NCBI GenBank assembly: GCA_043803385.1
Contig: JAZDKA010000034.1
Span: 10,561 to 74,560, forward strand
Direction: 5' to 3'
Length of the DNA stretch: 64,000 nucleotides
Source: Patescibacteria group bacterium
GTDB taxonomy: Bacteria > Patescibacteriota > Minisyncoccia > Moranbacterales > JAKLHP01
Below the pieces are notes generated by a model. That model did no database searches, was not told where the DNA came from, and worked only from the letters and a program-made list of their open reading frames with translations. Position numbers and translations under genes: made by a program. This document shows, one piece after another, positions 57,465 to 59,612 of the stretch (position 1 is the first letter of the stretch; each line of letters starts with the position of its first letter).

Positions 57465-59612
57465 ATGGACCAGAAACAGGCTAAAAATAGAATAGAAAAG
57501 CTTAGAGCGGAAATCGACCGGTTGCGCTATGAATACCATGTTCTGGATAATCCGGAAATTTCGGATGAAATTTATGATTCCCTAATGCGCGAGCTTCGGG
57601 AACTGGAAGAAAAATATCCGGGACTCAAAACTCCCGATTCTCCGAGCCAGAGAATTGGCGGAAAACCGCTACCAAAATTTGAAAAAGTAAAACATCAAGT
57701 CAAGCAATGGTCGCTGGATGATGCTTTTTCATTTTCTGAAATAAAAGCTTGGGAAGAAAAGATAAAAAGACTTGCAAGCAAGTCAATTTCCAATTTCCAA
57801 TTTCCAATTTCCAATAAAATTCAAAATTCAAAATTCAAAATTCAAAATTCTTTTATTGATTATTGCGCGGAAATTAAAATTGATGGGCTAAAAATTATTT
57901 TGACCTATAAAAATGGGTTATTAGTTCAAGCGGCAACAAGAGGGGATGGAGTCATTGGAGAGAACGTGACCGAGCAAGTAAAAACAATCCACAGCGTTCC
58001 GCTTAAATTAAATAAAGATATTGACATTATTGTTGTCGGCGAATGCTGGATGCGAAAAAAAGATTTGGAAAGGATAAACAAAGAGCGCGCATCAAAAGGC
58101 AAACCGCTTTTTGCCAATTCACGCAATGCAGCTGCCGGATCAATCAGGCAATTAGATCCCAAAATTACTGCCGAGAGAAGGCTAGATTCCTTCATTTACG
58201 ATATAGAATATGATTCAGGAGCTAAGCTCCTTTCAGGGAGCTTAGCTCCTAGTTTCCCCAAAACGCAAATTGAGGAACTTAAATTATTGCAGGAATTGGG
58301 TTTTAAAGTAAATCAGAATCATAAGCACTGTAAAAGTATTGAGGAAATTGAAGAATTTTTCCGCTCCTGGGAAAATAAAAGGAATAATCAAGAATATGGA
58401 ATTGACGGACTGGTGATAAAAGTAAATTCAAGAAAACTGCAGGAAGTCTTGGGCTACACCGGAAAATCCCCTCGCTTTGCCATTGCCTACAAATTTATTC
58501 CCGAGAAAGTTACAACTGTCGTAAAGGATATTAAGGTTCAAGTGGGAAGAACCGGAGCGCTCACGCCCGTTGCTCATCTTAACCCGGTCAAAGTTGCCGG
58601 ATCAACTGTGAGCCGGGCGACTCTTCACAATGAAGACGAGGTAAGGCGCCTTGACATTAGGATTGGCGACACAGTAGTGATTCATAAAGCTGGAGACGTT
58701 ATCCCCGAAGTAGTGGAAGTTCTTAAAAACCTTCGCACGGGAAAAGAAAAAATTTTTCATATGCCGATCAGATGTCCAATCTGCGGAGGAGGCGTGAAAA
58801 GGAAAGTAATAGGAGCAAAGGGGGGCGAAGAAAGCGCGGCGCATTATTGCCTTAATAAAAAATGTTTCGCCATTGAAAAAGAGAATATCATTCATTTTGT
58901 TTCCAAAAAAGGATTTAATATTGACGGGCTTGGAGAAAAAATAGTGGAACAGCTTATGAATGAAGGGCTTGTTTCAAATATTGCCGATATTTTTGAATTA
59001 ACTGAAGGAGATTTAAAACCGCTTGAAAGATTTGCCAAAAAATCGGCTCAAAATTTGATAGAAGCAATGAACAATAGTAAAAAAATAGAGTTTCCAAAAT
59101 TTATTTATGCGCTGGGAATCAGGCACGTTGGCGAAGAAACCGCAGTCCTTATCTTAAGAAATATGAGACAAGTAGCAAGTGATAAGATTAAAGGTTTAGA
59201 AGATATTATAAGATATTTTCCTGATATAAAAACTGAAGAATGGCTTGATATTAAAGGCATTGGTGAAAAATCGGCCAGAAGTTTAGCAGAGTGGTTCAAT
59301 AGCAAGGAAAATACTGAGCTAATAAAAAGAATGGAAAAACTTGGTGTAAAAATAATAATTTCTGACAAACTACCACCTACAAACTACAAACTCGATGGCA
59401 AGACTTTTGTCCTCACGGGCGAACTTAAAAACTTTACAAGAGATGAGGCAAAGGATATTATAAGGAAGAAAGGAGGAGACATTTCGTCATCAGTAAGCAA
59501 GAATACTGATTATATTGTTGTTGGGGAAAATCCGGGATCGAAATACGATAAAGCTAAAGATTTGGGAGTGAAAATTATTGATGAAGAAGAATTTAAAAAA
59601 TTAGTTTCATAA
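57465..59612 (+). CDS. ligA: NAD-dependent DNA ligase
   Basis: Ia domain, KxDG (EIKIDG), OB fold, Cys4 zinc finger (CPICGG...C...C), HhH region and a C-terminal BRCT domain. Confidence 0.9.
57784..57843. repeat. Two adjacent heptamer microsatellites, (caatttc)x3 then (aaaattc)x5, inside ligA
   Basis: Read directly from the sequence. They encode [22 protein letters not shown] just upstream of the KxDG motif. Confidence 0.7.

Follow-up and report, generated by a model that had tools for sequence, protein, structure and literature searches.

A fixed pair of heptanucleotide arrays in the ligA gene of a Patescibacteria group bacterium, probably a translated passenger of a clade-wide repeat process

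The ligA gene and its heptanucleotide tract

The NAD+-dependent DNA ligase LigA of a Patescibacteria group bacterium is encoded in a 64,000-nt stretch of contig JAZDKA010000034.1 (assembly GCA_043803385.1, positions 10,561 to 74,560), referred to here as the window. Shortly before the codons for its catalytic KxDG motif, the ligA gene contains two abutting arrays of perfect 7-nt repeats, which are the subject of this analysis. The features of the gene are as follows, in window coordinates.

57465..59612, + strand: ligA, NAD+-dependent DNA ligase, 715 aa, frame intact (Pfam; PDB 2OWO, E=4e-151; E136, K138, D140 and G141 invariant in 73 orthologs)
57769..57852, + strand: 84-nt patch, codons R102-F130, consisting of a 16-nt hairpin and both arrays (sequence comparison with other ligA genes)
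57769..57784, + strand: hairpin/palindrome GACTTG-CAAG-CAAGTC, 16 nt, at the 5' edge of the patch (sequence)
57784..57815, + strand: (CAATTTC)x4.57, 32 nt, 100% perfect, read as 11 protein letters (Tandem Repeats Finder, TRF, and exact-period scan)
57816..57850, + strand: (AAAATTC)x5.0, 35 nt, 100% perfect, read as 12 protein letters (TRF and exact-period scan)
58214..58250, + strand: second ligA insert, of hairpin type (ggagctaagctcc tttca gggagcttagctcc), residues ~250-262, a second insertion hot spot (TRF; pLDDT<50 for residues 252-262)
59365..59392, + strand: degenerate (AAACTAC)-type array in the HhH-BRCT linker, encoding PPTNYKLD (TRF; ortholog comparison)

LigA of the window aligns over its full length with the Escherichia coli enzyme (2OWO) and with 1DGS, and has the domain order Ia, adenylation (nucleotidyltransferase), OB, Zn finger, HhH and BRCT. 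Pfam assigns DNA_ligase_aden (2e-83) together with the OB, HhH, BRCT and Nlig-Ia domains. The KxDG motif reads EIKIDG, with K138 as the catalytic lysine. The whole protein matches the LigA of a Patescibacteria metagenome-assembled genome with 100% identity. The two arrays form an uninterrupted, in-frame block of 67 bp, located 6 to 31 codons upstream of K138. The original prediction of this tract, made from the letters alone, was right about its existence, frame, translation and position just upstream of EIKIDG. Its count of three CAATTTC units in a 56-bp block ending at 57843 is corrected by TRF and the exact-period scan to 4.57 units and 67 bp, with the end one unit later.

An AlphaFold2 model of the protein, built from 73 orthologs, has a mean predicted local distance difference test (pLDDT) score of 74.8. 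In this model, insert residues 109-128 are coil with pLDDT<50, between a helix (90-107) and the strand that bears K138 (133-139); residues 252-262 of the hairpin-type insert form the next low-confidence loop (pLDDT<50). Judged by the model, the ligA insert is probably a tolerated, disordered surface loop of ~28 aa.

In the window and in two other contigs, L041 and L042, the patch opens with the hairpin GACTTG-CAAG-CAAGTC. In one further case (L047, 10306-10321) it reads AACTTG-CAAG-CAAGTT; both arms are altered with pairing kept, at the cost of replacing R with K and S with L.

Copy number of the ligA tract

Unlike typical contingency genes, ligA is present in bacteria as a single, essential copy. 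The original prediction left two alternatives open, namely that the tract is stable or that the organism exploits or tolerates on/off switching of the ligase. In the latter case the tract would be a contingency locus, in which one-unit slippage would turn ligA off and back on, or leave it truncated. Like the contingency loci formed by simple sequence repeats (SSRs) in Haemophilus influenzae, where heptanucleotide tracts drive phase variation of the adhesins HMW1A and HMW2A (PMC8262952), both ligA arrays are perfect and their unit length is not a multiple of three. However, contingency tracts are long, variable among strains or within populations, and located in promoters or non-essential surface genes (PMC8262952), whereas the ligA arrays have at most five units each, an invariant copy number and an essential gene as their host. 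LigA is full-length, its essentiality is established knowledge about bacteria, and the reading frame was found to be intact in 120/120 retrieved orthologs.

The patch was compared in five independent assemblies from three lineages (the window, L041, L042, L044 and L045), and 4.57 + 5.0 units were found in all five. L042 is a MEGAHIT k141 contig from ENA, and its ligA is only 67.6% identical to that of the window at the DNA level, with 46.6% identity at third codon positions. Nevertheless, it matches window 57769-57852 exactly over 84 nt, and the identity stops abruptly at both edges; at 67.6% background identity, the chance of 84 identical nucleotides is ~5e-15. In the JGI contig L041, a 30-nt double mini-hairpin splits the patch behind the third CAATTTC unit, and the remainder of the array still sums to 32 nt. 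Scanning metagenomes with the array junction recovered two further independent assemblies of the L042-type ligA, L044 and L045, with unchanged unit counts. L042 differs from L044 by ~19 substitutions in ~1930 nt and from L045 by 2 substitutions, and six ligA heptamer arrays (32, 35, 17, 33, 23 and 26 nt) were equal in length across the three. Thus, none of six arrays varies among strains ~1% diverged. Compensating in-frame changes, such as gain of one unit in one array with loss of one in the other, are expected to be viable, yet none was seen among the compared ligA assemblies, and for this reason also the phase-switch reading is not supported. Across the five assemblies, the copy number of the ligA tract is invariant. 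Of the two alternatives in the original prediction, stability agrees with these results, and switching of the ligase is very improbable.

Insertion sites in LigA and the origin of the patch

In the alignment of the 120 LigA orthologs (relatives from Moranbacteria and Parcubacteria, 683-776 aa), length variation has a hot spot between the conserved segments ...WEEK..R and ..YC.EIKIDG. Many orthologs have a short form, R-(I/M)LEK-KGIKEKP-(D/E)YC, at this site, and others carry inserts of 5-50 aa. Several of these inserts are periodic at seven residues (NPKSQIPNPKSQ, KYQIQNTKYQ), which is the signature of other heptamer arrays read in frame, while others resemble translated palindromes (RLEVRLPRGSRTSA, PRRQAG). 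Peptide periodicity at offset 7 was found in 104 runs among the 120 orthologs, against 14-26 runs at offsets 4-6 and 8-10. The offset-7 runs concentrate in five LigA loops, at about residues 100-125, 250, 440-455, 560-570 and 630. At the DNA level, these loops were found to consist of heptamer arrays in L041, L042, L006 and L048. The CAATTTC array occurs again after the Zn finger in ligA of L041 and L006, the loops of L042 contain AATGTCA (33 nt), CATACTA and AACTCGC arrays, and L048 contains CATGGAA; GC-rich mini-hairpins accompany the heptamer arrays in the loops. At the HhH-BRCT linker, many orthologs have KLQITNYKLQ where the window has PPTNYKLD. At the site of the second insert of the window (58214-58250), relatives carry either the AATGTCA array (L042, 33 nt) or GC-rich hairpins (L041).

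In the closest relative, L046, which is 80% identical over conserved columns, the patch site is empty and reads R-ILEK-KGIKEKP-DYC. Compared with it, the window has the 84-nt patch in place of ~30 nt encoding the ILEK-KGIKEKP linker, which lengthens the protein by a net 18 aa; no target-site duplication was found in this comparison of empty and filled sites. The original prediction had set an ancient, fixed and non-repetitive insert shared by orthologs against a slippage-prone tract; an identical insert is indeed shared, but it is repetitive, and the closest relatives lack it. In a neighbor-joining tree of LigA on 682 conserved columns, the patch carriers P0001, P0005, P0112 and P0113 fall on four separate branches whose sisters are insert-free or differently inserted. 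Pairwise identities among carriers (63-78%) are not above those among non-carriers, and other types of LigA insert are equally scattered in the tree. Since the carriers are polyphyletic and the site of the closest relative is empty, the patch probably spread laterally; and because the KGIKEKP short form is widespread in the crown clade, the lineage of the window most likely gained the patch secondarily. The codons with which the patch begins, LASK (cttgcaagcaag), are apparently native to some basal-clade sequences, for example L047, where different arrays follow, and this points to a basal-clade type such as L047 as the putative donor. Taken together, we infer that the 84-nt patch entered the lineage of the window laterally and did not grow in place.

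The CAATTTC/AAAATTC junction also occurs in an unrelated membrane-protein gene in L043, with fewer units and a nested hairpin. Neither conserved termini nor common flanks were found across 13 CAATTTC arrays, and testing the patch for the conserved ends of a miniature inverted-repeat transposable element (MITE) or a repetitive extragenic palindrome (REP) revealed a hairpin at one end only. Short GC-rich hairpins are nested in CAATTTC arrays at L041 521-550 and L043 ~1830-1845 (tccgccaaaggcgga tccgcctcgggcgga; ccccattcgggg).

A class of heptamer arrays in Moranbacteria-type Patescibacteria

The window contains 11 perfect period-7 repeats of at least 2.5 copies, against 0.23 expected under an order-3 Markov model. 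All six of its perfect tandem repeats with at least 3 copies and at least 18 bp have period 7, and periods 8-15 are essentially absent. At least 10 distinct heptamer units are present, and seven of the 11 perfect arrays lie in spacers. In a census of loci centered on ligA, 64 period-7 arrays of at least 17 nt were counted in 352 kb of Moranbacteria-type loci, compared with 2 in 417 kb of loci from Chloroflexi and other outgroups. The tract is thus a member of a class of heptamer arrays across Moranbacteria-type Patescibacteria. The ligA unit CAATTTC, whose canonical form is AAATTGG, is the commonest, accounting for 14 arrays in 9 loci. Blocks of the form A_nT_mC_k make up half of all units (AAAATTC, AAATTCC, AATTTCC, AAATCCC), and one such unit can turn into another when a single base at the edge of a block is substituted.

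As 7 and 3 share no common factor, a heptamer array is translated into one and the same 7-aa cycle whichever of the three frames is read, and a unit therefore has stops in every frame or in none. The unit ATTAGAA has stops on both strands and was found only in spacers. Outside ligA, the window contains the following arrays.

54764..54794, + strand: (ATTGGAA)x4.43, in frame in the leader peptide of a type IV pilin, a lineage-specific insertion of ~11 aa (exact-period scan; ortholog comparison)
31957..31987, + strand: (AGTTCAC)x4.43, in frame in nrdG (activase of the anaerobic ribonucleotide reductase) right after CSFRCPFC, encoding SSQFTVHS (ortholog comparison)
31789..31838, + strand: (ATTTGGG)x2.7 and (ATTAGAA)x4.43, which together fill the nrdD-nrdG spacer up to 2 nt from the nrdG start codon GTG (TRF, exact-period scan)
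62212..62326, + strand: AATTTTC-type and (TTAGAAA)x4.3 arrays in the spacer from tRNA-Met to tRNA-Asp (TRF, exact-period scan)
49296..49327, + strand: (AATTTTG)x4.6, 84%, in the spacer directly preceding an ATG at 49334; its unit is the AAAATTC unit of ligA in reverse complement (TRF)
5298..5327, - strand: TGTTCCA-type array (TRF: CATGGAA x4.3) upstream of pth (TRF)
10038..10071, + strand: yqeY-ybeY spacer made up entirely of heptamers (AATATCC AATATCC AATTTCC AATAAAA ...), resembling the ligA array junction (exact-period scan)
20498..20531, + strand: (TGACAGT)x3-4.9, between a stop codon and a terminator-like hairpin (TRF, exact-period scan)
7667..7699, + strand: (AATTTCT/CTAATTT) array, the ATTAGAA family reversed, intergenic (TRF, exact-period scan)

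The original prediction that the heptamers form a dispersed class, which invades genes as well, is borne out and extended by the census (64 versus 2 arrays) and by the arrays in five LigA loops, the pilin and nrdG. The further arrays that it named were also recovered, at 31808-31838 (ATTAGAA x4.43), 62297-62326 (TTAGAAA x4.3, 91%) and 54764-54794 (ATTGGAA x4.43). Those at 31808, 62297 and 7681 share the unit ATTAGAA, one base from ATTGGAA. Spacer arrays in the window often abut start codons, and both spacers of the tRNA Met-Met-Asp cluster hold arrays. In-frame arrays occur in three genes of the window, namely ligA, the type IV pilin gene and nrdG.

The unit of the pilin array corresponds exactly to the ligA CAATTTC unit on the opposite strand. 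The N-methylation motif of this pilin starts at residue 21, compared with residue 6 in its paralogs, and the leader of the closest-relative ortholog is MPIIKNF-KLKNEKG followed by FSLVE, from which it follows that the window pilin has a lineage-specific insertion of ~11 aa. The M..IKNF N-terminus conserved in L046 suggests that the upstream ATG is the true start. An in-frame TTG, preceded by GGAAA within the ATTGGAA array (54737-54800), could start an 11-aa leader of normal length, MEIGNSSKKAG. Two pilin paralogs (52286-52672 and 52786-53196, both +) lie in tandem 500 bp apart; their 5' regions (an A-rich leader of 18 protein letters) and upstream sequence are identical, which suggests a recent duplication or gene conversion.

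The SSQFTVHS peptide encoded by the nrdG array is conserved in 120 nrdG orthologs of the same length, and these equal-length orthologs rule out the array as a recent insertion. In relatives, the array DNA has undergone ordinary synonymous decay, and that of L050 is two substitutions short of perfect periodicity. By these comparisons, the nrdG array appears to be old and domesticated. The adjacent nrdD-nrdG spacer (window 31727-31840; L050 and L051 ~2830-3000) holds arrays in three of four genomes, namely the window, L050 and L051, with the units ATTTGGG+ATTAGAA, AAATTRR (degenerate) and AAAACAT; positions can therefore be conserved while units turn over.

Two further genes of the window involve repeats. 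The annotatable open reading frame (ORF) of pth (5298-5342, -) begins 14 codons early, and the conserved start ATG (MKIIIGLGNPG) belongs to the TGTTCCA-type array. A small ORF at 18132-18449 (+) encodes a signal-like N-terminus and a Gly/Cys-rich tail (..CGGAGCGGGCGGCGCGGCGGGCG), the tail by a GC-rich region of 12/18/36-nt repeats (18291-18446) in a genome of 37% GC.

Beyond the census, AAAATTC arrays also occur in cyanobacterial and Bdellovibrio contigs. A search with the peptides of idealized array translations for other host proteins was abandoned; most of its matches were very short, spurious ORFs lying over intergenic arrays, and its only use was to show that arrays elsewhere can be longer. 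Among its matches, P0121-P0216 include many hypothetical proteins of 30-75 aa that are translated AAAATTC arrays, (NSKFKIQ)n, and products of gene callers; Nostoc, Scytonematopsis, Microcoleus, Okeania, Moorena and Bdellovibrio are the source of some of them, with up to about 16 units.

Array lengths

The array lengths are bimodal. Counts fall from 17 to 28 nt, after which 18 arrays are found at 30-35 nt, compared with 1.2 by geometric extrapolation, and no array exceeds 35 nt, which is exactly five units. Of the long arrays, 14/18 (15 with the pilin leader) lie inside long ORFs, versus 22/46 of the shorter ones, a comparison biased by the ligA-centered sampling.

The longest perfect arrays of the window, at 31, 31, 31, 32 and 35 nt, span the range from k to k+6 for k=31, as would be seen if a k=31 de Bruijn graph had collapsed longer arrays. 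Such a collapse was rejected, and an assembly artefact, whether of this kind or a chimeric join, is the least credible of the explanations considered here. Lengths are equal in MEGAHIT k141, SPAdes-type and JGI assemblies, the long-read-style assembly L005 has shorter arrays (18-27 nt), and the ligA frame is intact on both sides of the tract. Given that the same values recur across assemblers and that AAAATTC arrays of 16 or more units have been assembled for other organisms in the same databases, the ceiling is not an assembly limit. Ordinary slippage predicts neither the ceiling nor the deep persistence of perfect arrays, and a templated or mobile origin and selection at the nucleotide level are therefore live rivals to it.

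A mobile cassette or a selected element?

A Y1_Tnp gene, IS200-like and of the REP-associated tyrosine transposase (RAYT) type, lies immediately upstream of ligA (56676-57377, -). It is flanked by a REP-like palindrome that occurs five times in the window, against 0 expected.

53202-53226, 56640-56664, 56887-56911, 57179-57203 and 57401-57425: copies of the REP-like palindrome TATCGAGGTCGAACCTCGATA

This palindrome is a repeat family separate from the patch. Two of its copies are in frame inside the Y1_Tnp ORF (..IDYRGRTSIGL.., ..IEVRPRYN..), and in other lineages, similar hairpin peptides of the EVR..RTS kind are found at the ligA hot spot. A link between the patch and this transposase was considered and is not supported, the gene being absent beside ligA in L041 and L042.

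The patch could be a tiny non-autonomous mobile cassette, composed of the hairpin and the arrays, which an enzyme acting in trans inserts at preferred sites including the ligA linker and which moves between Moranbacteria lineages. Consistent with this are the identical, sharp-edged 84-nt patch in polyphyletic carriers, the recurrence of the CAATTTC/AAAATTC junction in the L043 gene, with degenerate versions of it in the yqeY-ybeY spacer and the pilin leader, and the hairpin mini-inserts nested in arrays of L041 and L043. The bimodal lengths look as if arrays were born at 30-35 nt and then decayed, and a Y1/RAYT-like transposase with REP-like palindromes does adjoin ligA. However, the 13 CAATTTC arrays lack conserved termini and target-site duplications, the Y1 gene is absent beside ligA in L041 and L042, and AAAATTC arrays occur in cyanobacteria and Bdellovibrio too. 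Moreover, one site carries different units in different lineages, and the nrdD-nrdG spacer keeps its arrays while the unit changes, which is consistent with generation or turnover in place. A mobile cassette is considered unlikely.

Alternatively, the arrays could be a functional DNA or RNA element under selection, either as a platform for a heptamer-reading protein or as an unstructured A/U-rich signal for translation or processing, by which the coding copies would also be constrained. Between genes with 47% identity at third codon positions, every nucleotide of the patch is conserved, the five-unit ceiling is strict, many arrays abut start codons or sit in tRNA spacers, and arrays persist at one spacer with changing units. 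A reader of this type, CspB, has been discussed for the TAACTGA repeats of Beggiatoaceae (PMC4679880); cold-shock-type OB-fold proteins bind one heptamer each. The RNA of the patch is essentially unstructured (z=-0.47), as such a signal would be. Against this, most orthologs, the closest relatives included, lack the patch and have unrelated inserts or none, the diversity of units argues against a single sequence-specific reader, and in relatives the nrdG array decays at synonymous sites as coding DNA normally does. With no Rfam match and a fold z-score of -0.47, the patch was likewise rejected as a structured RNA or a member of a known family, and an internal promoter or terminator was rejected because only weak consensus matches at shuffle level, with no promoter-like excess, were found. 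Selection for such an element appears distinctly improbable.

Comparison with known repeat systems

The canonical units of the short tandemly repeated repetitive (STRR) sequences of cyanobacteria are CCCCAGT, TTGGTCA and CAACAGT. More generally, heptanucleotides are over-represented among long SSRs in many bacteria, mostly in intergenic regions, according to the summaries of Mrazek et al. 2007 given in PMC4679880 and PMC4692102; as a reason for this excess, the same summaries relay the proposal that 7 nt matches the polymerase footprint. Examples include the STRRs of Calothrix and Nostoc, the GGGAATC repeats of Xanthomonas and the TAACTGA repeats of Beggiatoaceae (PMC4679880, PMC4692102), and Nostoc arrays reach 26 units (PMC4692102). 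Like cyanobacterial STRRs, the window arrays have 7-nt units with several per genome, over-representation of period 7, a mainly intergenic location and no established mechanism or function. They differ in their Patescibacteria/Moranbacteria host, in AT-rich units other than the canonical ones and in the hard ceiling of five units compared with 26 in Nostoc. In addition, the window class is often in frame in loops of essential enzymes, and an identical patch is common to polyphyletic lineages. The arrays are thus STRR-like in the over-representation of 7 nt and in their several dispersed, mostly intergenic units, but not in host or canonical unit.

The small dispersed repeats (SDRs) of cyanobacteria, reportedly described by Elhai and colleagues in 2008, are said to be very small mobile repeats that insert nested in other repeats. 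The present class resembles what is reported of SDRs, and also REP/REPIN-RAYT systems (PMC3116915), in having inserts of tens of nucleotides in genes, nested in repeats, and a RAYT-like Y1 gene beside ligA. Unlike REP/REPIN-RAYT systems (PMC3116915), the heptamer arrays have neither inverted termini, conserved ends nor a demonstrated link to Y1. The TAACTGA repeats of marine Beggiatoaceae occur in 2-6 copies upstream of start codons, and their distribution suggests horizontal transfer (MacGregor 2015, PMC4679880). The window class is similar in its arrays on the scale of 2-6 copies near start codons, its scattered distribution and a coding use limited by stops in the unit. However, the Beggiatoaceae have a single dominant unit with rare coding copies, whereas the window class has many units and occupies five LigA loops, the pilin leader and nrdG. 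The tandem repeats of Borgs (PMC9879509) are likewise perfect at the nucleotide level and add low-complexity, disordered segments to ORFs, but their genic units are divisible by 3 and change copy number fast; ligA has a 7-nt unit, a frame maintained via total length and fixed copies. Overall, the class works like the known heptanucleotide-repeat (STRR-like) phenomenon, and its new aspects are the host, the units, the five-unit ceiling and the routine colonization of protein loops. A limited literature search found no paper describing heptamer arrays in bacteria of the Candidate Phyla Radiation (CPR), which is absence of evidence only.

What explains the ligA tract?

The favored explanation, to which a probability of roughly 60% is assigned, is that the tract is fixed and encodes a passenger loop, owes its origin to a heptamer-repeat process operating across the clade, and reached this lineage by lateral transfer. 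By this account, two abutting heptamer arrays behind a 16-nt hairpin would have become fixed in frame in ligA, and they would encode a loop that joins the final helix ahead of the nucleotidyltransferase core to the β-strand with the KxDG lysine. The loop would be of low complexity, probably disordered and tolerated by the enzyme. The class as a whole is found in AT-rich spacers, directly beside start codons, between tRNA genes and in protein loops that tolerate insertions, and the genic survivors would be those arrays that are stop-free in the sense orientation and whose total length is kept a multiple of three. The arrays themselves may be generated by slippage-type or templated amplification of 7-nt units, up to five, and the patch may have entered by short-patch recombination or by insertion of a preformed cassette.

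Several points weigh against this explanation. Stability of the tract was judged from assemblies, and low-frequency length variants may exist beside the assembled form; the neighbor-joining tree is crude; and the set of loci was ligA-centered. Lateral transfer of 84 nt without co-transferred flanks is unusual for homologous recombination, and the patch yielded no signature of transposition such as a target duplication or conserved ends. The five-unit ceiling and the excess at 30-35 nt are unexplained by ordinary slippage. Finally, perfect arrays persist in divergent lineages, a poor fit to simple neutral passenger DNA, and a homogenizing force or nucleotide-level selection may act on them. A more far-reaching proposal is that Moranbacteria-type Patescibacteria own a dedicated process, other than slippage, that writes heptamer blocks of at most five units (30-35 nt), sometimes beside small hairpins, at preferred sites including loops of essential genes. 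The blocks would be exchanged between lineages and kept perfect by a homogenizing or selective force on the nucleic acid. This proposal is tentative and rather unlikely; if it is true, protein loops would be remodeled by a new kind of DNA element, mobile or templated, on a micro scale.

Significance for CPR bacteria

If the favored explanation of a laterally acquired passenger loop is true, CPR bacteria would join cyanobacteria, Beggiatoaceae and xanthomonads as hosts of heptanucleotide repeats, and would add to this phenomenon 1) a sharp ceiling of five units, 2) recurrent hot spots, 3) units that turn over at fixed positions, and 4) in-frame loops in LigA and NrdG. Dense metagenomic sampling of the small CPR genomes, with its empty and filled sites, nested inserts and identical patches, makes the origin of the arrays by slippage, templated synthesis or mobility testable. 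For annotation, low-complexity loops with a seven-residue period in CPR proteins would have to be read as derived from DNA repeats, and a repeat in an essential gene need not imply phase variation just because its unit length is not divisible by three.

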